From UHGV virus genome UHGV-0205097: 40,139 nucleotides of DNA, one strand, 5' to 3'. The DNA comes from a virus. The translations under genes were made by a program, and so were the position numbers. The notes below the pieces were generated by a model. That model was not told where the DNA came from and made no database searches. It was given only the letters and a program-made list of their open reading frames with translations. Positions 4,982 to 38,002 of the stretch are shown one piece after another (position 1 is the stretch's first letter; each line of letters opens with the position of its first letter).

Positions 4982-5566
4982 ATGAGAACTTTTTTGTCTA
5001 AGTACATGAGTGCCGAGGCACTTGATGAACTTGAAAATGCTTACAAGAATGCTAATGCAGGAGCAACAGGCTTGCCTGTATACATTCCTAAATCACGTTT
5101 TGATGAAGAAAATACAAAACGTAAAAATGCAGAACAGCTTGTAGCAGGATTCGAAGAAGACAAGAAAAAAGCTGTAAAAGAAGCTGTTGAGAAGTACAAA
5201 GATATACCCGAAGATTGGAAACAACAGCTTGATAATGCTACTAATGCGCTTGCTACACAGAAGGCGGATTATGAAGCAAAACTTACAGCAGCAAATCAGG
5301 AAGCCGACGTAACGGCGAAAATTTACGGAGCAGGCGGTAAGAATGTTAAAGCTATAAGAGCACTGATTGACCTTAATCAGGAAGCTACTGTAGATGAACA
5401 GCTTACAGCACTCAAAGAATCGGATTCTTACCTGTTTAGCAAAACCAGCGGCTTTAAGAAGGGCACTGATAAAGACGATGATGGCGGTAAACAGAAAGAA
5501 GACGGTGCGCTTTCACAGGCTGCTATGTATAGAGCAGTCGGCATTACACCTCCGATGGAGGACTAA
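4982..5566 (+). CDS. Capsid scaffolding protein (Gp20-like)
   Basis: YIPKSRFDE motif, coiled coil, GGKNVKAIRALID and LKESDSYLF motifs; GGAGGAG RBS before ATG 4982. Confidence 0.85.
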   Translation: MRTFLSKYMSAEALDELENAYKNANAGATGLPVYIPKSRFDEENTKRKNAEQLVAGFEEDKKKAVKEAVEKYKDIPEDWKQQLDNATNALATQKADYEAKLTAANQEADVTAKIYGAGGKNVKAIRALIDLNQEATVDEQLTALKESDSYLFSKTSGFKKGTDKDDDGGKQKEDGALSQAAMYRAVGITPPMED

Positions 5567-5595: not shown

Positions 5596-6828
5596 ATGCC
5601 TAACATGATCGAACTTGTTAACAAGTATCTGCCTGTACTCGACGCACAGTATAGACAGGAAGCACGTTCTGCAATTCTTGACGTACGTCCGGAATTTGTA
5701 CAGATGACACGTGACGCAAAGAAAGTAAAAATTGCTAAAATGAGAGTCGACGGCCTTGCTGATTATAGTCGTGCAAATGGCTTTACAGCTGGCTATGCTG
5801 ACCTTACATGGGAAGAGCACGAATTCACTCAGGACAGAGGTCGTGCAATTCAGATCGACGATATGGACAACGAAGAAACCTTCGGTATGGCTTTTGGCCG
5901 TCTTGCAGGTGAATTCCAGAGACTCCATGTAATCCCTGAAATCGATGCTTACAGATTTGCAAAATATTATCAGAAAGCAGCAACTCATCTCGAGTTCACT
6001 GTATCTTCTGGCGCTATTCTTAATCTCGTAGATGATTTTGATTCGCAGATGGACGACGACGAAGTACCTGAAGATGGTAGAATTCTTTTCGTTGCACCTT
6101 CTGTGTTCAAGCTTATGGTCAACGATCCGGCGCTTGAAAAATATATCTCTGTTGAAGGCGGCGAAGACAAGACCGTTAATAAGAGATTCTACTATTACAA
6201 CGGACATCCTATTATAAAGGTTCCTGCAGGTCGTTTCTATACAGAAATCGAACTTCTTGACGGTAAGACACAGGGCGAAGAAGTTGGTGGCTATAAAGCC
6301 GCTACGGGTGCAAAAGCAATCGGTATGCTTATGGTATCCAGAGAAGCCGTTATTCAGCTCGCTAAGCGTAGAATCGCAAGAGTATGGGCTCCTACAAGAG
6401 CACAGGCTGCTGGCACGGATGGCGTTAACCCTGATGCTGATGCTTGGAAATTCGACTATCGCGTATATCACGATGCTTGGGTTCTTGATGAAAAGACAAA
6501 GGGCATCGCAGGTGCAACGATCATCAATCACACTGTTACAAGTGTTGAAATTTATTCCGAAGATCAGAACGTAACAATCGAGTCCAATGCTGCTACTGTA
6601 AGCATGGCAACTGTACCGGATGGCTTCCAGCTCCGCGCACAGGTAACATTTACAGGCGGCGCTTCTACAGCAGTTAAGTGGTCCGATGGCGAAGGTCACG
6701 GTACTGTAGGTACAATCGACAGTAACGGCAATGTAACGCTCACAGGTACAGGTACATACAAAGTAACAGCAACTTCTGTATGGGATCCTTCGGTATCTGA
6801 TACTGTTACATTTACAGTAAACGCATAA
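5596..6828 (+). CDS. Major capsid protein with C-terminal Ig-like (Big2-type) domain
   Basis: GLADYSR, DRGR..IDDMDNEET, VIPEIDAYRFAK and YRVYHDAWV are typical Bacillota-phage MCP motifs. The last ~95 aa (VKWS..GTIDSNGNVT..GTYKVTATS) are Ig-like. Confidence 0.92.
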   Translation: MPNMIELVNKYLPVLDAQYRQEARSAILDVRPEFVQMTRDAKKVKIAKMRVDGLADYSRANGFTAGYADLTWEEHEFTQDRGRAIQIDDMDNEETFGMAFGRLAGEFQRLHVIPEIDAYRFAKYYQKAATHLEFTVSSGAILNLVDDFDSQMDDDEVPEDGRILFVAPSVFKLMVNDPALEKYISVEGGEDKTVNKRFYYYNGHPIIKVPAGRFYTEIELLDGKTQGEEVGGYKAATGAKAIGMLMVSREAVIQLAKRRIARVWAPTRAQAAGTDGVNPDADAWKFDYRVYHDAWVLDEKTKGIAGATIINHTVTSVEIYSEDQNVTIESNAATVSMATVPDGFQLRAQVTFTGGASTAVKWSDGEGHGTVGTIDSNGNVTLTGTGTYKVTATSVWDPSVSDTVTFTVNA

Positions 6829-8013: not shown

Positions 8014-8381
8014 TAACGGAAACAATAAAATCATTACTTCCTGAATCGCTTCAAAAGATTACGTATATAGGTGAATTTCCAACTGATGTAGATGATTGCA
8101 TCGTCATAGCTGAAGCAAGCGGACCGCATGGTCAATATTTTGCGCAAGATATGATGAATACGCCTTATATAAAAATAGGTGTACGCAATAATAAATATCC
8201 AGATGGACATTCTCTTATAAATCAATGTAAAAAAGTTTTAACAGGATACGCTGATGCCTCTACGCTCGGCGTTGTTCTTATAAACGATATAATGTACTTT
8301 GGAAGAGATGATAAACGTCGAAATGTTTTTCAACTTACATTCAAAGTATTTTCATTTGTTAAACAGGAGGGTAAAATATGA
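8010..8381 (+). CDS. Tail terminator / minor capsid-family protein
   Basis: IKIGVRN..Y and YFGRDDKRRNVFQLTF motifs; precedes the tail tube gene. Start 8004 or 8010. Confidence 0.7.
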   Translation: MITETIKSLLPESLQKITYIGEFPTDVDDCIVIAEASGPHGQYFAQDMMNTPYIKIGVRNNKYPDGHSLINQCKKVLTGYADASTLGVVLINDIMYFGRDDKRRNVFQLTFKVFSFVKQEGKI

Positions 8382-9010
8382 TTACAGAAAGACCTTATAC
8401 TGGTTTGACCGCAGAAATAAAAGTAAACAACAGCGTGCTCGGATATATGTCCGGCGTTGATCTTACGCTTGAAAAGAGTATAATCGAGGTACTTCAGTTT
8501 GGTGCAAGATACCAGGAGAAAGTACCTGCAATTAAAAACTGGACAGCGAATGTAGATGGTACAGTTGCTTTTACATCTGGCGGTTCACAGCATAAACTTT
8601 ATCAGGCTTTCGAAAGTGATGAAGAGATTACAGTAGGAATATTCCTTGACGACAAGGTTTATTTCGAAGGTAAAGCCTTCGTCGAAAACCTTAACATAAC
8701 AGGTGCACCGGATGATAAGATGAATATATCTTGTGATCTTTCCGGTAACGGCGCAATTACGTTCACAATACCTGAAGTATATCTTGTTGATATACATAGT
8801 GGTGTTGGTGGAACAACTACGCCGGGCGGTTCTCAGAAGGTAGCTAAGGGTGAACAGGTAGAAATTACAATAACACCCGCTGCAGGTTATGCGCTTGATA
8901 AGCTTATGGATAACGCAGAAGATAAAACAACCAGCGTAACAAGTAATAAGTATACGCTTACAAACGTTACGGCAGACCACGAAATAGCTGTAACCTTTAA
9001 GGAGGGTTAA
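8378..9010 (+). CDS. Major tail (tube) protein with C-terminal Ig-like/B-repeat domain
   Basis: KNWTANVDG, YFEGKAFV and ISCDLSGNG tube motifs; C-terminal GGTTTPGGSQKV..ITPAAGY..YTLTNVTADHEIAVTF. Confidence 0.85.
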   Translation: MITERPYTGLTAEIKVNNSVLGYMSGVDLTLEKSIIEVLQFGARYQEKVPAIKNWTANVDGTVAFTSGGSQHKLYQAFESDEEITVGIFLDDKVYFEGKAFVENLNITGAPDDKMNISCDLSGNGAITFTIPEVYLVDIHSGVGGTTTPGGSQKVAKGEQVEITITPAAGYALDKLMDNAEDKTTSVTSNKYTLTNVTADHEIAVTFKEG

Positions 9011-12421: not shown

Positions 12422-13009
12422 ATGACATTAAAAGTAAGAATATATTTTACCGATACGACAAAAGTATATAACGATAATTATATTGAAGACATTCGTTGTT
12501 CAGAAAACTTGACGAATTCTTCAATTGATATCGAACCCGGTATATGCGAACAATACGCAGAGATAACACTTTACGATAGAGATGGTGATATCCACGATAG
12601 AGCTTCTTCTGGTACGTTAGCGAAAAAACAGAAAGTAGAAATACTTATTGAAGATGGGGAATCAATAGGTACATATTTTACTACTGAATGGAACGTACCG
12701 GGAGAAAGTTCTTCTATTACAATAACTTGCAGCGATCCGTCAACAACGTTTGACGATATTCAGATAGAATCTGCAGGCATAAAAACACGTACAGTGGATG
12801 ATTTACTTACCTTAACATTTGAACAAATAAAAAGCGTAGTATGGCAATATATCGATACAGATACACAAGCTTATTGTAAAAGTATTCGAGTACCTAATAG
12901 TTGGTATTACGCAAATAGTGCGAAGAGTACACTTAATAAAATTTGTTCATTAGGTATGTTACGCATTTACTGGTACATAGATAGATTTATAGTAGCGAGG
13001 TGTTATTAA
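12422..13009 (+). CDS. Tail tip/hub protein, putative
   Basis: Beta-rich, IGTYF..W and ITITCSD motifs; synteny after Dit. Confidence 0.55.
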   Translation: MTLKVRIYFTDTTKVYNDNYIEDIRCSENLTNSSIDIEPGICEQYAEITLYDRDGDIHDRASSGTLAKKQKVEILIEDGESIGTYFTTEWNVPGESSSITITCSDPSTTFDDIQIESAGIKTRTVDDLLTLTFEQIKSVVWQYIDTDTQAYCKSIRVPNSWYYANSAKSTLNKICSLGMLRIYWYIDRFIVARCY

Positions 13010-14452
13010 ATGACACTTACACCATATATTTATCATTCAGGACTAAAGTGGTCATTACTTCCTAAAAATATTATTGATACGGTCGTCACAACACCTATCA
13101 ATAATACTATGGGAGATGAAACCGTAGTCCATACAGAATCTTTTACTACCAGTAGTTTAGGAAATTTACCTGTTGCAAATTCTGTTGCACCTACTTATAT
13201 ACGAACAATGCGGAATAAAGGTTCAACATTTGCAACAAGAAATTTCACTTACGCAAAAGCACGTACGGAAGCGTTAATAGCTACTGGCACTAAGAAAATA
13301 ACAACAGAAAAACCTGTAGCAGGTATACCTAATGTTGAATTAGTATTTTCCGGAACTTCTTCCGTTATTACTCGAGGCGAAAATTCATTTGACGATTACC
13401 CTACTCTTGAACAATTACAGGATAATACGTTTTCACTTGCGGAATGGATAGAATCCAATAAATCTTCCGCAAGTCAGGCGCTTACGTGGAGTTACGGCAC
13501 ACGTGCGTTTTCAATGAATCCTTGGGTAAAAAATATTATTACTGTGAACGACCCGCAAGCGGTGTCGCCGGCTGATATCTTTACGAATTGGGCGGAACAC
13601 GTAACTACATCAACAACAGCTGAAGTTAACAATTGGGAAGAACATTTTAATTATAATCCAGGTAATACTAATGCAGTACGTGTAAAACCTTATCTTATAG
13701 GAGGCGATCTTTTTGAAGAAGCCCAGAGAGCGCTATTACTTATCGATAATAGTATCAGTATTAGCGTAGAAGTTGTAAAAATCGATGACTACAATTTCGA
13801 AATAACTTGGGAAGCACCCGTCAGATTTGCTTATATTGCAGCGTCACAAAAGCGTGGTACAATTCTTGGTATAGCCACAGACATCGATAACTGGGCGTTT
13901 GTTGATAATATTACACAAATCGATGTGAACATTAAGAGTCAACCTTTTAATACAGATAAGGTAACGCGTAGCTATAGCTTGTCCGCAAGTAACACGTTAA
14001 CTACAAACGTTTCAAATGAACATCCTATCACAATAAATGGGGATGAAGTAATAACACTTGAAACTTACGTAGGAGTAGGACGTGATCCTTGGACCGAATA
14101 TATTGCGTCAACATTGTTGTTAAAATACAAAGAGGGCAAGTATATTGTTAATTGCACAGTTTTAGGTGATTGGGCAATACAAAACAATATACATATTAAC
14201 TCAGCTTTAACAGTACAGTTACTTGACGGCACTATTATTTCGAGGAACGGAGTACCGTGTTTCTTTGAGGTCAAGACTATCGAAAAAGTTTACAGAGGTG
14301 ATACTTTTGAGTTTAATTTAGGATTACTCGAAAGTTATACTGCAAATAAACTTGCGACACCTACTGGACTTACTATTACAGCAACATTAGATGCTACGCA
14401 GCTCAGTAAGCCGACAGGACTTACTATTACAGCAAATTTTGAAAGGGAATGA
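13010..14452 (+). CDS. Tail tip protein ending in two tandem FN3 A-strand-like peptides
   Basis: 480 aa; C-terminus KLATPTGLTITA-TLDAT-QLSKPTGLTITAN. Confidence 0.6.
   Translation: MTLTPYIYHSGLKWSLLPKNIIDTVVTTPINNTMGDETVVHTESFTTSSLGNLPVANSVAPTYIRTMRNKGSTFATRNFTYAKARTEALIATGTKKITTEKPVAGIPNVELVFSGTSSVITRGENSFDDYPTLEQLQDNTFSLAEWIESNKSSASQALTWSYGTRAFSMNPWVKNIITVNDPQAVSPADIFTNWAEHVTTSTTAEVNNWEEHFNYNPGNTNAVRVKPYLIGGDLFEEAQRALLLIDNSISISVEVVKIDDYNFEITWEAPVRFAYIAASQKRGTILGIATDIDNWAFVDNITQIDVNIKSQPFNTDKVTRSYSLSASNTLTTNVSNEHPITINGDEVITLETYVGVGRDPWTEYIASTLLLKYKEGKYIVNCTVLGDWAIQNNIHINSALTVQLLDGTIISRNGVPCFFEVKTIEKVYRGDTFEFNLGLLESYTANKLATPTGLTITATLDATQLSKPTGLTITANFERE
14366..14435 (+). repeat. 19-bp direct repeat GGACTTACTATTACAGCAA (14366-14384, 14417-14435)
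   Basis: Read directly; encodes the duplicated GLTITA strand. Confidence 0.9.
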
Positions 14453-14455
14453 TAT

Positions 14456-16813
14456 ATGATTACATTTTCTTGGAATTCTGTGCCTAATGCAACTGCTTAT
14501 TCAGTTGCATGGGCACCTACCCTTTCGGGTAATAAAAAGATACTTGTTGCAAGTCAAGCGGCAACAAGTTATTCTTTCGACGGCTCACATGTAGATGACC
14601 CTTATTATGTAAATAGGGATACTTATATGTTTGTTCGAGCGCTTGACGGAAGCAATTATGTATCTTCGGATTGGGCAAGTGTGGTAATGCAAATGAGAGA
14701 AGTTTCTATTGCGGGATCTCATATATCATCAACACTTGCTATAGGTGATTATCGAGTTGTAGTAGGTACAACTGTACCTTCGTTCACAATAACACCTGAT
14801 AAGGGTTATCAACTTACTGCCGAAGATATATCAATTGTAAATAACGGTGTTGATATTACTTCGCAAGTTTATAACGCAAATACTCATACTGTATCTTCGT
14901 TTGTAGTAAACGGTTCTGTGCAAGTTCTTGCGACAGCAGTACAGGCACAACTTGCGGCACCTGTAATAAGTTTGTCAGGATCAATAGTATCTTGGGCAGC
15001 TATTCCAGATGCAGAAAGTTATAAATTGTATGTTAATGGACAATTTACGGCTAATCTCGGAAACGAACTCTCTGTTGATTTGTCGCAAGTTATCGCGCTT
15101 AAAGTTCCTTACACTGTCAATGTACTCGCACATGCAAGTGGATTTAAGGACTCAGAACTTAGTAATACAATTTCATATACACCTAAACCCGATGCACCAG
15201 TACTCACTCTTAACGGTAATATTCTTTCATGGGTAGCAATTCCGAGTGCTACAAAATACACACTTGTAGCTATCTCGAATAGCTTATCATTATCGAAAAC
15301 AAAAACTGTAGACGCAAATACTACGTCGCTTGACTTGACCACGTGGACTGATCTCGTTCCAAGTTCTTGGACAATCGGCGCAATTGCATATGTTGGTGAT
15401 GTACGTAGTGATACATCTGATACCGTAACTTACGTTAATACAATTCAGTTGGCGTATCCCGAAACAGTAAATATATCCGGTAATGTGCTTACTTGGAATA
15501 ATGTCGCAAATAACTCGGGTTATGAAATATTGTATCGTAGAGTGAACGGTACAGGTGAAATATATCAGACTGATATAGTTGACACAGATATTACACAACA
15601 CACATTAACGGTAACAACAGCTGGCTCATATTCTATAACAGTAGTTACAATAGGTACAGGTTCTTATACGGATAGTGAAGAAAGTCCTTCTGTAACGTAT
15701 ACCGTTCAGAACAAGCTTGCAACGCCCACGATAGCGATTGACGGAAACACCTTAAATATAACAGATGTTGAGAATGCGCAGAAATATAAAATCTACGCTA
15801 ACGGGGAGCTTAAAACTACTATTCCAAAAGGAAGTACACAAACAACATATGATTTAACAAACCTTAATCTCAGCGCAGGTAATTATGCGATAACAGTCGT
15901 TGCCGAAGCAGAAGGATTTACAGATTCAGATGTAAGTAATTCAGTTAACTACACTGTTCAAGCTCAATTAGCCACACCTACAATAGCAATGAACGCAGAC
16001 GGTAAAACGCTTGAAATAACGGACGTAGAAAATGCAACGAGTTATGATGTGTATGTCGACGGAACGTTGAAAATAAATGTACAGAGAGTTACGGGGTATA
16101 CGGTTACTTTTGCATCTGATTTCTCAAGTATTGCTTATGCGGGTGGGGAGCTAAGTGATGTAACATTGACGGCAAATACTGGCGTATCTACACCGCTAAC
16201 AAGCACCGCAAGGGGATTAGTGTGGCAGGGAGTTTCTAATCTTATATCGTCTCGCAGTGTAGCTTTAGGTATAAGTTACACTGATGCGAGTGGTGCAAAT
16301 AAATCCTTTAATAACTATCTCGCATTGACTTCTGATATTACAATTACGTATGCAAATGATACTTGTCTAACAGGTGATACGCTCATTACTCTTGCAGATG
16401 GTACGACAAAGCGTATTGATACAATCACACTTGCTGACAGGGTGCTTGCATATAATCCCGAAACGATGGCTCTTGAAGCAGATGAAATCATTCGTTGCGA
16501 CAGCGACAAAATAAAGACACACAGCGAATATGATGTCTGGACATTTAGTGATGGAACAATTATCAAGACTGTACATCGCCATAGATTTTACAATGTTGAA
16601 CGTAATGCAATGGTTTATATGGACGAATGGAAAATTGGTGAACATGGCAGAAAAAAAGATGGAGTACTTGTTACACTTGTGTCGCATGAGAATGTCAAAG
16701 AAACAGTCAATCACTATACTATCTTTACGAAAAAACAAAACTATTTTGCGAACGGTCTTTTGAGTGGTAACAGATACACAAAGCCTATTGTATTCGCAAA
16801 TGATGGGAGGTAA
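14456..16813 (+). CDS. Tail fibre/adhesin with FN3-like repeats and a C-terminal Hint (intein-like) domain
   Basis: Repeats of the form LAxPxI..LSW.A.P.A..Y...DL....Y...V.A...G..DS..SN...YT. Hint domain from CLTGDTLITLADG (16364) to NYFANGLLSGN (16771). Confidence 0.8.
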   Translation: MITFSWNSVPNATAYSVAWAPTLSGNKKILVASQAATSYSFDGSHVDDPYYVNRDTYMFVRALDGSNYVSSDWASVVMQMREVSIAGSHISSTLAIGDYRVVVGTTVPSFTITPDKGYQLTAEDISIVNNGVDITSQVYNANTHTVSSFVVNGSVQVLATAVQAQLAAPVISLSGSIVSWAAIPDAESYKLYVNGQFTANLGNELSVDLSQVIALKVPYTVNVLAHASGFKDSELSNTISYTPKPDAPVLTLNGNILSWVAIPSATKYTLVAISNSLSLSKTKTVDANTTSLDLTTWTDLVPSSWTIGAIAYVGDVRSDTSDTVTYVNTIQLAYPETVNISGNVLTWNNVANNSGYEILYRRVNGTGEIYQTDIVDTDITQHTLTVTTAGSYSITVVTIGTGSYTDSEESPSVTYTVQNKLATPTIAIDGNTLNITDVENAQKYKIYANGELKTTIPKGSTQTTYDLTNLNLSAGNYAITVVAEAEGFTDSDVSNSVNYTVQAQLATPTIAMNADGKTLEITDVENATSYDVYVDGTLKINVQRVTGYTVTFASDFSSIAYAGGELSDVTLTANTGVSTPLTSTARGLVWQGVSNLISSRSVALGISYTDASGANKSFNNYLALTSDITITYANDTCLTGDTLITLADGTTKRIDTITLADRVLAYNPETMALEADEIIRCDSDKIKTHSEYDVWTFSDGTIIKTVHRHRFYNVERNAMVYMDEWKIGEHGRKKDGVLVTLVSHENVKETVNHYTIFTKKQNYFANGLLSGNRYTKPIVFANDGR

Positions 16814-16816
16814 ACA

Positions 16817-17284
16817 ATGAGTAAAACAACATTAGATTTATCAACATTGTCCGATATAGCGGACGGCGCACATACCGTAAAGGTTAAAGCAAAGGCTGAC
16901 GGGTACAGAGACAGCGAGTTTTCTAACGAAGTAAGCTATACGAAAGCGCCAGCGGGATATAATCTTACTACATCAAATGTGTCAATTCCAAACGAGAATT
17001 ACGCCTATTTTGATATTACGTTTGGTGATGGAACCACAAAAAGTGCACAATTAGGTGATAATACCACGATAGGCAATCAAAGCTCGATAAATTATCCCAA
17101 AGTAAGTAACCCTATACTCAATGTTATTAAAATTAGACTATATACATACAAGGATTATCCGTCAAAACCGTACATAAGAATGAAAACGTCTGGTACGGTT
17201 TTAGACAAGAGACAACAAGGCGGAAGTATAGAATTAGAGCTAACAGCAGATACGAGTGTTTTAATTTTGAACGGTTCCGCATAA
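16817..17284 (+). CDS. Tail fibre partner protein: C-terminal half of an FN3-like repeat + variable beta domain
   Basis: N-terminus SKTTLDLSTLSDIADGAHTVKVKAKADGYRDSEFSNEVSYT matches the second half of the repeats in 14456..16813; GGGAGG RBS. Confidence 0.7.
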   Translation: MSKTTLDLSTLSDIADGAHTVKVKAKADGYRDSEFSNEVSYTKAPAGYNLTTSNVSIPNENYAYFDITFGDGTTKSAQLGDNTTIGNQSSINYPKVSNPILNVIKIRLYTYKDYPSKPYIRMKTSGTVLDKRQQGGSIELELTADTSVLILNGSA

Positions 17285-17421
17285 ATGGTTCGAATATATT
17301 AACTTATGCCAAACTACAAAAACACACTTATAAAAACAACATCCGTTCCGGTTTTGGAATTGACGGACGAGATGTGCGACGAAGTAAAACGTCTCTTTGA
17401 GCTGAAAAAGAGGAATATAAT

Positions 17422-17544
17422 ATGCCAGTAAGAAAAGTAAAAGGTGGATATAAGTGGGGTACAAAAGGTAAAGTATATCCTATTAAAAAGCAAGCTGAAA
17501 AACAAGGGCGTGCTATTAAAGCATCCCAGAAAGGAGGTAAATAA
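17422..17544 (+). CDS. Small basic phage protein, 40 aa (absent from the ORF track)
   Basis: AAGAGGA RBS; MPVRKVKGGYKWGTKGKVYPIKKQAEKQGRAIKASQKGGK; stop abuts the next ATG. Confidence 0.7.
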   Translation: MPVRKVKGGYKWGTKGKVYPIKKQAEKQGRAIKASQKGGK

Positions 17545-17545
17545 A

Positions 17546-17764
17546 ATGATTTCGCTACTCAGAAGACACAATGTAGATTACAATAATATTTGTGAGTTTA
17601 TTGCTGACGCTGAAGTTGATATCAATACTGCTGATGAACAAATTGAAAAAATTCTCGGCGGGACTTGCGGCATACATTCAGCAATATTAGTAATTGATAC
17701 AAATAAAACTTACTATAAAAAATCTACAGGTGAATGGGTGCCATTAGGAGGTGGGAGCGCTTGA
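17546..17764 (+). CDS. Hypothetical protein (72 aa)
   Basis: AAGGAGGT RBS before ATG 17546; the track's start at 17444 is probably too early. Confidence 0.7.
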   Translation: MISLLRRHNVDYNNICEFIADAEVDINTADEQIEKILGGTCGIHSAILVIDTNKTYYKKSTGEWVPLGGGSA

Positions 17765-17940
17765 ATATAATAAAGGCTCCTTTGGCAACTATTATTCCGC
17801 AAGTAATAGGCGTCATTATTCCCGAGCCGCAAATATCACAACTAAGTAAACCCACAAATTTACAAATAAAAGCGGAGGTAAATAATTATGTATCAAGCAA
17901 CCGGAGCACTATTCGCAAAAAAAGACGTTCGCGATTATAA
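17761..17940 (+). CDS. Hypothetical protein carrying an FN3 A-strand-like peptide
   Basis: GGAGGT RBS, TTG start overlapping the previous stop; contains QLSKPTNLQIKAE. Confidence 0.5.
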   Translation: MNIIKAPLATIIPQVIGVIIPEPQISQLSKPTNLQIKAEVNNYVSSNRSTIRKKRRSRL

Positions 17941-18958
17941 AGCAAATTTTATAGCTGGCTCATTTGATTTTCCTGAAACATATGAGTGTCCTAATATGCC
18001 TGAACCAGTCGATCAAGGCTCAGTAAATTCTTGCGTAGCTTGTTCACTCAAGACAATAATAGAATGGCACTCAAGAAGACAAGGTGATGATTCACGACCT
18101 ATGAGTATAGGTTACATTTATGGTAATCGTGAAAATTCTACACATACTGGCGAAGGAATGTATACGCGCGAAGCGATAGGTTCAATTGTGACCTATGGTG
18201 ACTGTGCGAAAGAAGATTTCCCGGAGAACGTAGAAGTTCCGCGTGTAATAGAGTTGTTCAAGTCTCGCGTGACGCAACTTATTGATGTAGCTTATCCTAA
18301 CAGAATTACATCATACGCAGTGCTTACATCAGATAAAGCTACGAAAGCTGCACTGATGCAAAATGGTCCTGTAGTAATGGCTATGGAATGGTTCGGCGAT
18401 ATTACATTCGATAAATACTACATAATGCACACATCGTGCAAGCATTCATTTAAGAACGGCGGCCATTGTATGGTTATCTACGGTTGGAATAAAGATGGAT
18501 GGCTTGTTCAGAACTCATGGGGAAAGGATTGGCAAAACGGAGGTCGGTGCATTATTCCTTTCGATGTATCAATACGCGAACGTTATCAAATTGTTGACAA
18601 TTTTTCAGAAGCAATGAATAAAAAACGCATTGAAGACTTGACCAAACAAAATGAAGAACTTCTTCAGGTTGTCGCAAACTTGCGCCTTCAGATAGCTACT
18701 CTTACAGAACAGCTTAAAGAATTTAACGAGTATAAAGAACTCACGCAAGAGCAGATAAATAAAATCGATGATCTTTCTACAGAATTATTTAACGCAAATA
18801 ATAAACTGTACGAAAGTCTTGAAACAATTGAAAATCAGAAGAAGGAGATTGAAGCTTTGCGCAAGGAATTGCTCGAAGTGAAAAAACCCTATAACACCCC
18901 TTGGGGCAAGCTTATCGCAAAGATAATCAATCTCATTCTTCGAATATTTAGTATATAA
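17888..18958 (+). CDS. Papain-like C1 cysteine peptidase + coiled coil + amphipathic C-terminal helix (candidate lysin)
   Basis: DQGSVNSCVA (Gln/Cys), GGHCMVIYGW (His) and VQNSWGKDW (Asn) catalytic motifs; directly upstream of the holin. Confidence 0.85.
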   Translation: MYQATGALFAKKDVRDYKANFIAGSFDFPETYECPNMPEPVDQGSVNSCVACSLKTIIEWHSRRQGDDSRPMSIGYIYGNRENSTHTGEGMYTREAIGSIVTYGDCAKEDFPENVEVPRVIELFKSRVTQLIDVAYPNRITSYAVLTSDKATKAALMQNGPVVMAMEWFGDITFDKYYIMHTSCKHSFKNGGHCMVIYGWNKDGWLVQNSWGKDWQNGGRCIIPFDVSIRERYQIVDNFSEAMNKKRIEDLTKQNEELLQVVANLRLQIATLTEQLKEFNEYKELTQEQINKIDDLSTELFNANNKLYESLETIENQKKEIEALRKELLEVKKPYNTPWGKLIAKIINLILRIFSI

Positions 18959-22856: not shown

Positions 22857-24387
22857 GTTTGAACACCTCCTCTATATCTTCTGCTTTTTTAGTTGTGATT
22901 CCTTCTACATGTTGGTCAATCGAATGCTCCATATTAAGTATCCATATATTTGTCATACCAACTTGACCACTACGATTTACTCTATCCTCTGCTTGCTCAT
23001 TGATACCTGGTGTCCAATCCCTATCGAGGAATATAACATTCCTACAGTGATGTTGCAAGCCATCGACGCTTGTGCCAAGTGCACCTATAGTACCAATAAG
23101 TACCCGATATGAATCGAAACTGTCTTTTACCCGCTGACGTTCTTTACTGGACATCTCGCCGTAGTAAAGTTCACATTTGATTTTTGCTTTGGTCAAGTAT
23201 TCGTGCAAAGCTTTCGCGCTTTCCGCAAACTTACTGAATATAACAACTTTCTCGCCCTCATTGTCCTCAAGCCAATCGCGAATCCATTCGAATTTCGGGT
23301 TATGCTTGCACGAAGGAAACTTGCAACAATTAGTTGTAATTTGCTGCTGCTTGATAATTTGATCCATCGCGTTCTTTATTGTGATACCATCTTCCGCAAG
23401 TCTATCCAGCGCAAGATTAACTACATCCTTATAAAGATTACGTTGCGATACATCCATAGGCAACTTTATTGGAATAATATTCTTGCCCTCGGTAACGTTT
23501 TGATTGTCGCCGCCGACGGAAATAATTGAAAGTACTTTCGCAAGTAGATTACGCGCGTTTTCAGATGGAGTCAAACCTACAGGCTTGCGACCAAAATGAT
23601 CTTCTTCTACTTCGCAAAATCTATTTACAAATTCCCAATATGAGTTTCCGCTTATCTTAGGGTCAAGAAAATTCAGTTGCGACCACAAATCATCTGGATG
23701 ACCAAGAATAGGTGTACCAGTAAGACACATTCTATGGCGAGAAGGTAGATCCTTCAACGCTATAGTTATTTGTGCTCCTGCTGTTTTTATTCTATGCGAT
23801 TCATCCACAATAATTATATCCCATACCCATCCCTTACACTTCATAAAGGGTTGAGTAGGCGCAAGTACTTTATGTTTACGTGTACCTACATTACGCGGAG
23901 TCAATTGTTCATAATTTGTAATATAGATAACACCTTTAGATGAATCGCTCAAACTCGGGCCATTGCCGAGGACTTGCACACACTCTGACATTTCTGGCCA
24001 CCATTGCACAAACTGGTCTTTCCATTGATATACAACAGATTTAGGACATACGACGAGTATGCGTTTGAATCCTTTAAGTCTACAATGCTCAATACTCTCA
24101 AATGTTTTACCATATCCGGGTTTATTTCTGTTCAAGCAATTCTTGAGCCTAAGAGTATGCTCAATGTCCTTTACTTGATAATCCCTTGCTTTAGGATTTA
24201 TTTCGGAGTGATCGCTGTCATCGGAAAAACACTCCAAATCTATACCCAAACAAACACGATTGAATATATTGTCCTCAAGTATTAGGTTATCGCCGTTACG
24301 AGTAATGTTTACGCAAGTCTTGCGTATGTACATTTTCTCTTGATTAGTTAGATCCATCAGATGAATCTTGTTGTTCAATTGCTTCAT
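22831..24387 (-). CDS. SNF2-family helicase
   Basis: PGYGKT, VVCPKSV, ITNYE, VDESHRIK, LTGTP, GTSVDGLQ and QAEDRVNRSGQ. Start approximate (24387 or 24393). Confidence 0.92.
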   Translation of the reverse strand: MKQLNNKIHLMDLTNQEKMYIRKTCVNITRNGDNLILEDNIFNRVCLGIDLECFSDDSDHSEINPKARDYQVKDIEHTLRLKNCLNRNKPGYGKTFESIEHCRLKGFKRILVVCPKSVVYQWKDQFVQWWPEMSECVQVLGNGPSLSDSSKGVIYITNYEQLTPRNVGTRKHKVLAPTQPFMKCKGWVWDIIIVDESHRIKTAGAQITIALKDLPSRHRMCLTGTPILGHPDDLWSQLNFLDPKISGNSYWEFVNRFCEVEEDHFGRKPVGLTPSENARNLLAKVLSIISVGGDNQNVTEGKNIIPIKLPMDVSQRNLYKDVVNLALDRLAEDGITIKNAMDQIIKQQQITTNCCKFPSCKHNPKFEWIRDWLEDNEGEKVVIFSKFAESAKALHEYLTKAKIKCELYYGEMSSKERQRVKDSFDSYRVLIGTIGALGTSVDGLQHHCRNVIFLDRDWTPGINEQAEDRVNRSGQVGMTNIWILNMEHSIDQHVEGITTKKAEDIEEVFKRVAEMLSA

Positions 24388-24904
24388 CCGCATCTTCCAA
24401 ATCCCCCCAACTTCTTCCTATTTCAGCATCCGCTTTGAACGGGAAATCCAAAACAGGATTCGTTAAATATTTTTTAGGCATATTCGCCATAGTAGATATA
24501 CCAATATCTACAACACGTCTCAGTGCTTTAGGGTCATCGATACATTCTATAATAATAGAGTCGTGAACCGTGTTTACAATTCTTGCGTCAATTCCCTCTT
24601 CTATCAACTGATCGTGGATTGAACATACACTAAGCATGGTCAAGTCTGACGCGATTGATGATACAGGGAAATTAACTGCTTCGTTTTCAACGTGATTACG
24701 ATTATCCATAGTTACAATGTAATGACGCTGTCTGCCGAAAACTGTTGTATAAGGTTCCGAATTGTATGGTACCTTGCGCATCTTATCAACAAAACGTTTT
24801 GCACCAGGAGCAGCTTTATACCAGTCTTGTACAAGTCTTGTTGCTTCGCCCATTGACATATGCAGCTTTGTTTTCATAGAGCCCGGACCACGCCCATATG
24901 GTAT
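24344..24904 (-). CDS. polA: DNA polymerase A, exon 3
   Basis: Begins IPYGRG, completing motif B; AVNFPVSSIASD and motif C VHDSI. Confidence 0.9.
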   Translation of the reverse strand: MPYGRGPGSMKTKLHMSMGEATRLVQDWYKAAPGAKRFVDKMRKVPYNSEPYTTVFGRQRHYIVTMDNRNHVENEAVNFPVSSIASDLTMLSVCSIHDQLIEEGIDARIVNTVHDSIIIECIDDPKALRRVVDIGISTMANMPKKYLTNPVLDFPFKADAEIGRSWGDLEDADEAIEQQDSSDGSN

Positions 24905-25517
24905 CGGTTACTTATCCGATTCTTCTTTCTCAGATAACCTGACTATACCTTTCGTGAAATTCTTCCACACTTCGTGTTCCTTCTGATGGCAACTTTTACA
25001 AAGTGTTTCAAGATTTTCAGGATCGTTGTTGCTACGATCGCGATCCTTATGATGCACTAATAAGTAGTAAGTAGATCCGCAACGCTCACATTTATTTCCT
25101 ATCATCTTCTGATAAGATCTTGCGCCGTTAACGTAGTTATTATTGTTTGTACCTGATTGATTATAACCCCGTCTCATGCCTTGATAATATTCATGGTTGT
25201 ATTTTGTTACATACGCTTTACGCTCTTCGCGATGCTCATAATAGCTACGCAATGCTCTCTCACGATTTACGTCATCACGGCAGTTGCAACAGTACAATTG
25301 TCTTCCACTATTAGGTATGAACTCTTTTCCACATCTCTTACATATTCTCTTAGTTAACATCTTTCACTTACCTCCCGTATAAATAGATTCGATTGATTTG
25401 AGTTTCCTCAGACGATCTATTATAAGTCGATACACACTACCCGTAACGTAGGCACGGTCTCAACATCTCAGTCCTAACCGTTTTGAGGAGGTTTTACTTC
25501 GGCATACGCTCTTACGC
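24905..25517 (-). mobile_element. Group I intron 2 in polA (613 nt)
   Basis: The exon ends in U (..CUUCGGU) and pairs with the IGS GCCGAAG. R-like UAUCGACUU, S-like AAGGUAUAGUC, terminal G. Splicing restores KTVNFG|IPYG. Confidence 0.88.
24908..25360 (-). CDS. Intron-encoded HNH homing endonuclease
   Basis: CERCGS..LLVHHKDRDRSNNDPENLETLCKSCHQKEH; N-terminal Zn ribbon. Confidence 0.9.
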   Translation of the reverse strand: MLTKRICKRCGKEFIPNSGRQLYCCNCRDDVNRERALRSYYEHREERKAYVTKYNHEYYQGMRRGYNQSGTNNNNYVNGARSYQKMIGNKCERCGSTYYLLVHHKDRDRSNNDPENLETLCKSCHQKEHEVWKNFTKGIVRLSEKEESDK

Positions 25518-25763
25518 ACCGAAGTTAACTGTTTTAGCAGCTACACGTTGTTCCTTAGTAAAATTCTCGCCGAATATTTTATGCGCCATAGCATCGTGCA
25601 AGTCTTTACCTTCACGATAAGTTTCACGCAAATATTCATCTTGCGAAAGATAAGCAAGTACACGAAGTTCAGCCTGTGAATAGTCGAACTGTACGAGCTT
25701 ATATCCAGGAGGAGCAATAAACAGATTCTTGATAAGCTTCATTCTTGGAATATTCTGCATGTT
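25518..25763 (-). CDS. polA: DNA polymerase A, exon 2
   Basis: NMQNIPR, motif A DYSQAELRVLA, DLH, RVAAKTVNFG. Confidence 0.92.
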
Positions 25764-26455
25764 CTTTTAACTGGACTATATCATCTACTGCCCTTATCGC
25801 GACAGTAGGAGTGCGCTTCAGCCTTTCGGCTTACGGGCTCGCGCCCTAGTCTCTGCTCTTACGTAATTGTTGATGTAACTTTGAGTGCGCAGCATTTGTC
25901 ATAAGCGCTAAATTGCTTATATCGTTATTATGCTTGTCGCCGTCTATATGATGAATAACAAAACCGGCCGGTATTTCCGTTAAGCCTAACGCTTTACACA
26001 TAACTACGGAATGCTCAAAAACATGGTTGCATCCTGTGCGTCCGGTATACCATTCAGGGCGCAATATCATCCAATATCCACGACCATCAGAAACACGCTC
26101 TTTGTAGTTAGGATGCTGTTCTTTGTACTTTCCCTTCATTGGATTTTTATCACCCTTTTTAGATAACTGATAACTACGCTGCTTACGCATTTTACGATAA
26201 TCTCTATCGTACATATCGTACAAAAACCCTCTGTAAAGCCAAGTAACAGATATTCCCAATTCTTCTGCTATCTGAGCGTCCGTCAAATTTGTTTCTTCAT
26301 ATAGTCTCTTTAATTTATTTACATCAACTGTCATAATCATGTACCTCCTATGGTAGATATTATTTACGTTTAGATCAGGATTATCCCTTTCGGGCCTTCC
26401 CTGAATTCACACTCTTCTTCGATGTAGCTCACGCTACAAAGCCCCAACATGTTTT
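25764..26455 (-). mobile_element. Group I intron 1 in polA (692 nt, IA-like)
   Basis: P1: CCCU|AA pairs with UUGGGG. P10: CAUGUU pairs with 3' exon AACAUG. P AAUUCAGGGAA, Q AAUCCUGAUC, R CAGAGACUA, S GAUAUAGUCC, terminal G. Splicing restores SDP|NMQNIP. Confidence 0.92.
25846..26340 (-). CDS. Intron-encoded HNH homing endonuclease
   Basis: VFEHSVV..GFVIHHIDGDKHNNDISNLALMTNAAHSKLH; N-terminal HTH-like segment; AGGAGG RBS. Confidence 0.9.
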   Translation of the reverse strand: MIMTVDVNKLKRLYEETNLTDAQIAEELGISVTWLYRGFLYDMYDRDYRKMRKQRSYQLSKKGDKNPMKGKYKEQHPNYKERVSDGRGYWMILRPEWYTGRTGCNHVFEHSVVMCKALGLTEIPAGFVIHHIDGDKHNNDISNLALMTNAAHSKLHQQLRKSRD

Positions 26456-27739
26456 AGGGTCACTACAACTCAAACGACCTGTTTCCGTTCCGTGCAAGTT
26501 AAACGTACAACGTACACGGTTATCCTTATTCATAACACTGAATATGCCTTGAACATAAGTATCCATGTACTTGTTATACTTGCGCAAGTCCATAATGGCT
26601 TGCACAAACGGTATCTTGGGAAATTCTTCGGCAAGGGCGCTCAACGCGTCGGCGTCAGTTTTGTCAAGTTTCTTACCTGTTATTGTTTCAAGCATCCATT
26701 TGAGCTGCTTAGGTGACTTGTGATTGAAAATACTGGAAAATGTTTTAGCACCCGTGTCGCTCATATACGCAGCAGGATCCCAGGTACGTGCTGCTTCCTC
26801 TTTTACGTGTTTCTCGGCTTCGTATATAAGTGTGTCGAGTTTATCTTGCAACTCATAAATATAATCCTGGTCTACGAGACAACCTGCGACCTCTATATCA
26901 CGAAATACGTTCGCAGCCTTGACCAACTTATAATAAATATCGATTGAACCCGGACGCATTATGCGTTTGAATTTTTTGTTTAACTGATATGTTGTGCAAG
27001 CATCGCGATAAAGATAAGGTATCAATATATCGCTCGATATCATATCGTATTGAAAATCAGCCATCTTTACTTTATGTTGCAAGCACCACTTACGTTTGTA
27101 TTCATTCAGCTTATCATCCCACTGAGGTGTCTGTAAGTATAAAGGACCCAAATCCTTTAAGCCGTGTGTACCTTTACGCTCGTTTATTCCGGCATAATGT
27201 TGCAACATAGTATCTTCATCTATACGTGCGCGTATTTCCATAAGATATTTCAAACGCGCTGTATCGAATTTACCGTTTTGCCATATAAATGTTATATTTG
27301 TTTTATCAAATAAATTCTGCAATTCATCAATAGGAAAATCATCTCCTACTTTTAGAACAATGGCGTCATAATCACTGTACGCAAAACCTATAAGTAATAC
27401 TTTATTACCATCGTAACCCGTATTACGCGTTTCTATATCCACTGAAAGTAAATCGTATTGTGCAAGCCTGTCCAGAGCTTGCACAATATCTTCTTTAGTC
27501 TCATATGTAACGCCGTTTACTTTAGAATCATCCCACCATCCTTTTTCAGGAGCTCCGTCAAGATAATTGTGAACTGCTTCTATAAGTATATCCATCAAAT
27601 TGAAGTTTCCACGTAAGACTGTTTCAGTGGGTACGTAAAGTACATCATTTACTACCTTGAAAAATCTTTCGTGATTCATAGTAAGACGTATTTCTTTACC
27701 TTCTGGTATATTCGGTGCAATTGCTTCTATAACCGTCAT
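26456..27739 (-). CDS. polA: DNA polymerase A, exon 1 (3'-5' exonuclease and start of polymerase domain); spliced product ~696 aa
   Basis: Exo motifs VDIET, QNGKFD and YLYRDA; FNHKSPKQL; GTETGRLSCSDP. Confidence 0.92.
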
Positions 27740-28676: not shown

Positions 28677-28971
28677 CGTACTTCTCCTTGTATCGTGCAA
28701 GTAATTTATTTACGTTACGTTCGATTACTTCGTCGAGCGATATATTAAGCTGTGTTGCAAGATTTGCAACATACCACATTACATCCCCGAGCTCTTCTAT
28801 GGTATGTCCCGGATCAATTTCACGTCCGTGAAAATACTTTTTCTTTATATCATCTGCAACTTCACCAGATTCTCCTGTAAGACCAAGTGCGAACCCTATA
28901 ATAGGCTCGCACTTAGTAGGTGCAGGAAGAATACCATGTGATGCAAATTCCTGGTATTCTTTAAGTGTCAT
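28669..28971 (-). CDS. MazG-like nucleotide pyrophosphohydrolase
   Basis: LGLTGESGEVADDIKK..EELGDVMWYVA..NVNKLLARY. Confidence 0.9.
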   Translation of the reverse strand: MTLKEYQEFASHGILPAPTKCEPIIGFALGLTGESGEVADDIKKKYFHGREIDPGHTIEELGDVMWYVANLATQLNISLDEVIERNVNKLLARYKEKYDV

Positions 28972-29636
28972 TAGGCTACACTCTCCTCATATTTTTTAAC
29001 TTTACGAGCAATAATTGCTGTAAACGGAACTATGCAACTTTCATACAAAGTCTTGCAAAGTGCCTGAGCAGGTATTGCAATAAGAATCTGCTGCCAGGTC
29101 ATAAATTCGAACCCGAGGAAAAGCTTAGGAAGTATGTTCATTCCAAGCGGAATAAATATACAGCTATCGCAAAGCTCTCCAACGAGCGAACTTATAATGG
29201 CTCTGTACCAGAATCCTTTACCGTCCGTATGTTTTTCTTTCATCTTGCGGAACACTTTATCGTTCATCAAGTCGCCTATCATATAAGCTGTGAGTGATGC
29301 TGCGAGTGACCACGGTGTAGTACCAAGTACAGCTTTCATACTATCCGATACTGCAGGATCAACACCAGGAATAGCGTTCGCTATGGCAAATATTGTTACC
29401 ATTACTATATTTGCGCCGAATGCTATCCACGCGGTCAATCTTGACCACTTATATCCATAGACTTCGCTGAACACGTCGCTTAGTATATAAGTTATAGGAA
29501 ATACAATTACTGCACAAGGAAGTACTGCAAATCCTATACTAAACACCTTGCAAGCGATAATGTTGCTAATGAGCATTGCTACTGTATTTATAACTACCAG
29601 CAGCATAAATACGGATGATACTTTTTTTGTTTTCAT
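28971..29636 (-). CDS. yhhQ: Queuosine precursor transporter (YhhQ/VUT family)
   Basis: SNIIACK, FPITYILSDVFSEVYGY, ASLTAY, RAIISSLVGELCDS; about six TM segments. Confidence 0.9.
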   Translation of the reverse strand: MKTKKVSSVFMLLVVINTVAMLISNIIACKVFSIGFAVLPCAVIVFPITYILSDVFSEVYGYKWSRLTAWIAFGANIVMVTIFAIANAIPGVDPAVSDSMKAVLGTTPWSLAASLTAYMIGDLMNDKVFRKMKEKHTDGKGFWYRAIISSLVGELCDSCIFIPLGMNILPKLFLGFEFMTWQQILIAIPAQALCKTLYESCIVPFTAIIARKVKKYEESVA

Positions 29637-37360: not shown

Positions 37361-38002
37361 TCAGATGCAGAAAGCAGGGGCTACGCCGCTCGAGTGGTTC
37401 GCATTGCTGCCGCTGCTGTTGCCGTTGCTGTTGACAGTGCGGAAATAGCTGCCGTTGTAGATACTCGGCGACCGCTCCCACCACCAAGCAGTTCCATAAC
37501 CCTCGCGTTCTTTCACTCGGCTTCGCTCCGTTCCGAATATGTCTATCTGGCTGTCTTCCGGCTCTATCGCTTCGTAGTTTGTGTCTTTCCCGAACACCTG
37601 TGTTTTCGAAAGCAGAAACAGCTTGTCCTCTGTCTCTCGTCTTTTGCCGTCCCATACCTGCACTATCTTCGTCGGCTTGATTACCTTCTTTAATCCGTCC
37701 GGCAGAAGCTCTATCACTTCTTCGTTGAGATATTTTCGCATAGCGCTTTCTTCCCATCCGCCTTTGTTCGTCCAGCCCTTGTTCATTGGCTTTGTCTCTT
37801 TCAAGCAGTTATGCATTATAAAGTATATCTTGCCGCTCTCGTCTTTTCCTATATCAAAGCTCACTTCCTCACCGTTTTTCAGCGTTACGGGAATATTATC
37901 TCCGCTTTTCAACACCTCGCCGAGCTTTCCAGCTTCCGAAAGTACTTTAAGCTCTTCCCAAGAAATCCATTTTATTTCCGTTGTTATAACTTTAATTTTC
38001 AT
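37361..38002 (-). CDS. DUF6273-like / C-type-lectin-fold protein with DGR-type variable region
   Basis: NKGGWEESAMRKYLN, DKLFLLS..QVFG, WWWERSP..GVAPAFCI; the C-terminus is rich in AAC/NNC codons. Confidence 0.78.
   Translation of the reverse strand: MKIKVITTEIKWISWEELKVLSEAGKLGEVLKSGDNIPVTLKNGEEVSFDIGKDESGKIYFIMHNCLKETKPMNKGWTNKGGWEESAMRKYLNEEVIELLPDGLKKVIKPTKIVQVWDGKRRETEDKLFLLSKTQVFGKDTNYEAIEPEDSQIDIFGTERSRVKEREGYGTAWWWERSPSIYNGSYFRTVNSNGNSSGSNANHSSGVAPAFCI

Follow-up and report, generated by a model that had tools for sequence, protein, structure and literature searches.

Complementary parts of one FN3-like beta-sandwich are encoded on two separate proteins of a tailed phage, as in composite joints of the BppU/BppA type. 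Natural fusions of the two halves, their pairing in gene order and selection on their sequences make it probable that they re-form an FN3 domain by non-covalent fragment complementation, giving branched modular adhesion or receptor-binding appendages. The features concerned lie in the window, the whole analysed stretch of 40,139 nucleotides from virus genome UHGV-0205097:

14348..14449, + strand: two 17-residue repeats resembling FN3 strand A by sequence pattern, at the end of tail gene 13010..14452
14456..16813, + strand: fibre-like protein of 785 aa, comprising an FN3-like start that lacks strand A, a spacer domain, four intact FN3-like repeats, the N-half, tip 1 and a Hint domain
15713..15961, + strand: intact 'type 1' FN3 repeat, beginning at K420; seven strands in the model, pLDDT 80-91
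15965..16081, + strand: N-half of the split FN3 domain (strands A, B, C and C'; Q504-V542), followed by QRVTGYTVT
16082..16363, + strand: variable tip 1, 94 aa; members of its family follow either the N-half (4) or the C-half (2)
16364..16771, + strand: Hint domain of the hedgehog/intein-like kind, spanning Cys637 to Asn772; a 13-residue tail then closes the 785-aa protein
16806..16810, + strand: Shine-Dalgarno sequence GGAGG of the C-half gene, abutting the stop codon of the upstream gene
16817..16945, + strand: C-half of the split FN3 domain (strands E, F and G), opening the 155-aa gene 16817..17284 and followed by APAGYNLT
16946..17281, + strand: variable tip 2, 112 aa; members of its family follow either the C-half (5) or the N-half (4)
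17306..17360, + strand: box of about 54 nt just past the last tip gene, conserved at the DNA level in 10 of 11 aligned loci

The original prediction gave the sequences and coordinates of the intact repeat and of both halves just as they were found here. It also placed the N-half inside the fibre and the missing half at the N-terminus of gene 16817, in agreement with profile HMMs that resolve the 785-aa protein into four paired N+C repeats and one unpaired N-half, and the 155-aa protein into a single unpaired C-half at its start. The 'unrelated domain' it described after the N-half is real as a domain switch, but consists of two domains, a 94-aa tip (543-636) and then the Hint domain (637-772). 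The Hint domain, the polymorphism between intact and split forms and the presence of the joint in podoviruses all go beyond what it described.

The window, of about 40 kb, has the gene complement of a siphovirus-type tailed phage: terminase, SPP1-type portal, scaffold, major head protein, tail terminator and tail tube, with a 772-aa gene occupying the tape-measure position. The latter is followed by three more tail-region genes, the 785-aa gene, the 155-aa gene, a papain-like peptidase and a holin, and on the basis of this position the 785-aa and 155-aa proteins would both be located in the virion. The split-domain genes sit after the tail genes in the window, and after the capsid gene in relatives L001 and L010. 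Portal type and leader motifs point to a host among the Bacillota; the contigs of relatives come from pig-gut and gut runs (X1, X6), or from human gut in the case of L003. The major head protein (5596-6828) has a C-terminal extension of about 100 residues, and the tail tube protein (8378-9010) ends in a Flg_new_2 domain.

One indication that the two halves belong together comes from proteins in which they are contiguous. In a search of proteins of 85-272 residues clustered at 90% identity, the 155-aa protein matched 432 clusters; of the best 120 of these, 110 open with the C-half (one behind a short extension), five have another domain first and five are fusions. Similarly, among the 121 N-half sites of the 120 best N-half matches (two sites come from a single distant protein), 28 run straight into a C-half, 82 into a tip and four into a tip plus Hint domain, while seven form the end of the protein. 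In the fusions an ASVPNTTT-type linker joins N-half to C-half, and because the halves are contiguous in natural proteins their pairing is not attributable to chance. Residues 55-141 of one such fusion, P0022, are predicted to form seven strands with pLDDT 92-98, and comparison of this model with known structures by VIA-align matched it to the FN3 domain of Bacillus chitinase A1 (1K85; Z 10.3, rmsd 2.2, 80 residues). In the models the division falls within the C'-E loop. Going by FN3 topology, both halves would contribute strands to each of the two sheets, and neither would complete the core alone. In a single model of the 785-aa protein, the lone N-half forms four strands at pLDDT 70-79 whereas the intact repeat reaches 80-91; the lone C-half of P0022 was modelled at pLDDT 54-72, which may reflect a shallow alignment at that site. 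Neither window protein matched an fn3 family in a Pfam scan, in which relatives gave just sub-threshold Ig_RIMBP2 matches.

Refolding of a divided FN3 domain has precedents. An engineered FN3 domain (monobody) cut near its middle is reported to refold 1:1 from two peptides (PMC11666773, citing Dutta et al. 2005); that cut lies in the CD loop, whereas in the window one more strand precedes the natural cut, which falls in the C'(D)-E loop. In HCF-1, two polypeptides are described as associating non-covalently through a half FN3 repeat and its complement, Fn3nc/SAS1 (PMC6582346). Unlike the phage halves, these derive from an animal nuclear protein, of which a single precursor is cut by proteolysis, and they carry no variable tips.

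The arrangement is not a one-off broken gene, an outcome that would have counted against the original prediction: the split recurs across many loci and clusters, and the C-half gene keeps its start and its ribosome-binding site, a purine-rich one, in all seven split loci whose gene begins MSKTT. For the locus comparison duplicates were counted once (L002 with L001; L012 and L034 with L025; L017 with L016; L027-L029 with L026), and L036 and L037, weak matches without relation, were removed from the set. An N-half at least 88% identical is present in the directly upstream gene in seven of the eight close loci with upstream DNA visible (L001, L003-L007, L010), and an unpaired N-half lies upstream in all seven distant loci of the same split type (L011, L014, L016, L019, L023, L025, L030). 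In L025, the sole unpaired C-half is internal to the next gene. Most loci were found via the C-half, and pairing in the reverse direction rests on few cases: searching from the N-half, a C-half was found two genes on in L033, none was found within 5 kb in L035, and L032 runs up to the end of its contig.

It is unlikely that adjacency fails to define the pair and that the halves instead fold with other partners, whether as homo-oligomers, by strand swap with intact repeats or with halves encoded at a distance. Such partners would account for the orphan or unbalanced halves of L035, of L008, where C-half genes have no N-half within 6 kb to either side, and of L007, where 10 kb hold three C-halves and two N-halves and the third C-half gene has no partner in view; they would also suit the proteins with two N-halves or two C-halves (P0124, P0277). 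Yet L007 itself shows matched pairing, since the type 1 repeat (intact in the window, absent from L004) is there split over two genes and a second repeat type is cut in the same loop, resulting in a three-gene chain in which repeat types correspond in gene order, type 1 N-half to type 1 C-half and type 2 N-half to type 2 C-half. Fusions, moreover, unite the same two halves, and distant partners would still constitute complementation.

Formation of one covalent chain from the two genes, through readthrough, frameshifting, excision at the DNA or RNA level, or ligation of tip 1 to the N-terminus of the partner by the Hint domain, is judged quite unlikely. Two attributes of the window would favour it: the genes are in the same frame with three bases between them, and a Hint domain with catalytic Cys and His lies between the halves, its closest solved structure being BIL2, which is reported to ligate proteins, attaching ubiquitin-like domains to an amine (PMC8616854). 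The Hint domain is, however, found behind just four of the 86 split N-halves that carry a tip, and its last residue, Asn in the window, varies between copies; being optional, and present also behind C-halves and intact domains, it is therefore dispensable for the joint. Stop-codon readthrough was rejected as a general mechanism, only six of 13 gene junctions being in frame. Excision of the insert was likewise rejected: in joined contigs 31 other letters stand at the junction, and these contigs hence represent alleles rather than excision products.

The identity of the Hint domain is indicated by Foldseek, in which BIL2 (6Y75) was the best match at E 1.7e-8, with 2LWY and 1AT0 among the matches; the match to PF01079 (E 8e-4) fell below the curated cut-off. 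It shares with BIL and Hedgehog Hint domains the fold, the first Cys and the block-B His (PMC4031507, PMC8616854), both residues being present in 16 of 16 aligned copies. Unlike inteins and type A BILs, the aligned copies have no C-terminal His-Asn, nor do they have the Cys, Ser or Thr that comes next in inteins, the terminal position being N, D, C or K, preceded by Gly or Ser and followed by Arg or Lys, and the domain ends a phage fibre tip. For such a domain, reviewed Hint mechanisms lead to the expectation of an N-terminal thioester without splicing (PMC4031507). The Hint domain, itself optional, may cut itself off at Cys637 or pass tip 1 to a nucleophile or amine. It is mobile among tip positions, and Hint domains less closely related to it are found at the ends of other fibre genes (L009, L023, L024, L025, L026, L030, L033).

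In split loci the halves are under purifying selection, pooled dN/dS over eight related split loci per half being 0.065 at dS 0.71 (N-half) and 0.095 at dS 0.84 (C-half). These values come from a small sample, and recombination with intact alleles could contribute to them. Per-column conservation in split versus intact forms is 0.98 versus 0.96 and 0.94 versus 0.93. The low dN/dS implies that the halves are kept as protein and not as DNA boxes. It is thus very unlikely that they are DNA homology boxes or relics for tip swapping and no longer a protein joint, for although contigs switch tip exactly at the half ends (those of three runs diverge there from the window and rejoin it at 17304-17305), repeats are gained or lost between near-identical phages (L004) and the downstream box is kept at the DNA level even with a broken reading frame, the halves differ far more at synonymous sites (dS 0.7-0.8) than in their amino acids (dN 0.05-0.08), the start codon and Shine-Dalgarno sequence are retained in seven of seven loci, and N-half sites are split in 93 cases versus 28 intact.

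The box of about 54 nt is also found in L001 (at 5286), L003 (5157), L005-L010 and L022, with around three differences between the window and L001. It opens a 300-aa gene that is intact in L001 and L010 and truncated or frameshifted in six other loci; RNA folding of the box was not significant (z -1.3 to 0.6). From its conservation and the rejoining of contigs at 17304-17305, it is a candidate for the right-hand boundary of tip exchange. A repeat search of positions 13000-18000 gave no recombination repeats or inversion sites around the insert. Remains of another C-half gene start are found behind the tip gene in L001 (~5210-5265) and L005 (~5110-5150), which suggests that tandem tip genes are gained and lost.

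Under fragment complementation, the fibre would serve as the socket for the 155-aa protein, with two exchangeable tips displayed at the joint. The fibre itself would be hung on a tail protein by a first split, with strand A supplied by gene 13010: gene 14456 begins at strand B, and the strand-A-like repeats of gene 13010, of which the close relative L032 has four copies, are likely donors for a domain whose remainder opens gene 14456. Tips would be exchanged by recombination in the constant flanks, that is, the halves and the downstream box, and would bind host-surface or gut ligands.

Clustering of 239 variable segments gave 38 families, 34 of them behind a half and four ahead of a C-half. 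Fourteen of the 34 occur behind either half, including the families of both window tips, and 11 proteins with the window-type scaffold carry several different tips; the expectation that the downstream domains would be hypervariable and swappable is thereby borne out. Their proposed role in receptor binding has direct support in relatives, where tips are targeted by DGRs or contain DUF6273, though none for the tips of the window. Of 36 tip-family representatives scanned, DUF6273 alone passed the curated cut-off (P0167), and tips of this type sit on these joints in P0167 and L023. DGR cassettes were found in L013 (1319-1637) and L016 (7256-7586), each with a TR and a reverse transcriptase, and with a target gene that opens with a C-half and ends in the variable repeat; TR/VR mismatches fall at template A in 9 of 11 and 15 of 16 cases, respectively. 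In the window, a scan of 43 proteins gave no reverse transcriptase, and positions 13000-18000 contain no long repeat. The window tips matched no family in Pfam or PHROG, and the Atlas gave no function for them; tip 1, whose model is of low confidence, has only weak beta-sandwich look-alikes there, and tip 2 weak beta-sandwich look-alikes at TM about 0.5. The tips may serve in receptor binding, mucus adhesion or as decoys.

The joint is widespread among phages. The N-half matched 518 clusters, and about 97 of the 120 best matches are carriers like those located behind the major head gene in L001 and L010. Halves about 90% identical to those of the window are present in phi29-like podoviruses; L001, for instance, encodes a phi29-like connector, head protein and terminase. 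The C-half profile matched 2567 representatives at 50% identity, 654 of them with E no higher than 1e-10, counts that take in intact repeats within long proteins; the best 150 of these matches comprise 59 proteins of >800 aa, 52 with the C-half first, 26 with an internal unpaired C-half and 13 with paired halves only. No tblastn match to the C-half was found in a cultured-phage collection of 50,697 records, and bacterial genomes gave one distant match only, an intact repeat (L031).

Several related arrangements accompany the split domain. In L015 (657-1958), L018 (3-1982), L020 (5289-5861), L021 (1218-1721) and L026 (6733-7881), proteins with runs of strand-A-like repeats are encoded ahead of a gene that begins at strand B, strand A being absent, and that has a variable domain. 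A short AILG repeat accompanies such runs, and the proteins carrying them possibly act as multivalent scaffolds. A strand-A-like motif ends the holin in L003 (3304-3768) and L005 (3294-3758), and another ends the tail protein that precedes this holin; in L014 (4053-5650) one FN3 domain is apparently spread over three genes, as strand A, B-C-C' and E-F-G. Chaperone-usher pili are chains built by donor-strand complementation from incomplete Ig-like folds, each completed by the next subunit. Two proteins with the C-half first and the N-half last (P0284, P0331) would extend chains as chaperone-usher subunits do, although split-FN3 joints differ in having no chaperone or usher, in using half domains besides single strands and in the possibility of branching. 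In L011 (614-1504), L019 (5437-6141) and P0290, an N-terminal segment with His and Cys is followed by a variable domain and then the C-half; it has no Pfam match, and its His/Cys spacing resembles that of Prp protease. An L27-type Prp leader motif was detected in five of 348 ORFs of the fetched loci, all five inside split-domain gene clusters and none in the two genes of the window; the Prp substrate motif is described as N-terminal, L-x-L-Q-F-F-A-like and cleaved before the A (PMC9405229). The roles suggested for strand-A tags, chain-type proteins and Prp leaders are read from sequence. It is conceivable, if rather doubtful, that unrelated gut-phage families share a self-assembling kit of strand tags, half-domain plugs and sockets, chain extenders and cross-linkers, with branched multivalent appendages drawing on dozens of pooled tips, and with an optional Hint domain or Prp-made N-terminus locking or timing some joints covalently.

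The principle of a composite joint is already known. In the Lactococcus phage Tuc2009, a 25-residue hairpin of BppU is reported to complete a sheet of BppA; the resulting composite domain is titin-like and carries a carbohydrate-binding module (PMC4742702). As there, two phage proteins would make one beta-sandwich by which an accessory module is hung on the tail, here known from sequence. In contrast to the fixed baseplate hairpin described for Tuc2009, the window domain is halved (ABCC'/EFG) and bears tips on both halves, cut and intact alleles coexist, and siphoviruses and podoviruses share the joint. Tentaclins and other Hoc-like DGR targets of gut phages are described as Ig/FN3 domains in a row, tipped by a variable C-type-lectin domain, DUF6273 (PMC10743442). 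These are single polypeptides with an N-terminal DUF6273 and then Ig domains, whereas DUF6273 is C-terminal in the split-FN3 relatives; neither window protein has a DUF6273 domain and no DGR adjoins the window tips. The word 'split' does not occur in the accessible text of the tentaclin paper, nor does that of the VARTIG paper (PMC8416519), which describes variable Ig-type tips as in tentaclins, mention a split. No description of a half-domain cassette with a shared tip pool was found in the largely open-access literature covered; the mobile half-domain toolkit with its shared tip pool would be the new part.

If the halves dock, a phage could add, drop or swap a binding tip without changing its capsid or tail, and the same joint would serve siphovirus tails and podoviruses. 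Docking would also provide a route to host-range or mucus-binding diversity besides DGRs and invertible tail fibres, and would account for hundreds of unannotated phage genes of about 140 aa starting MSKTTLDL. The type 1, type 2 and strand-A tags could furnish natural, possibly orthogonal, split-FN3 tag pairs for protein display.

Elsewhere in the window, on the minus strand, a family A DNA polymerase occupies two ORFs with two HNH endonuclease genes between them (24344-27739), which suggests interruption by an intron or homing elements. The replication arm on the same strand also contains a gene of the Vut_1 transporter family (28971-29636) and a stand-alone DUF6273 gene (37361-38002).
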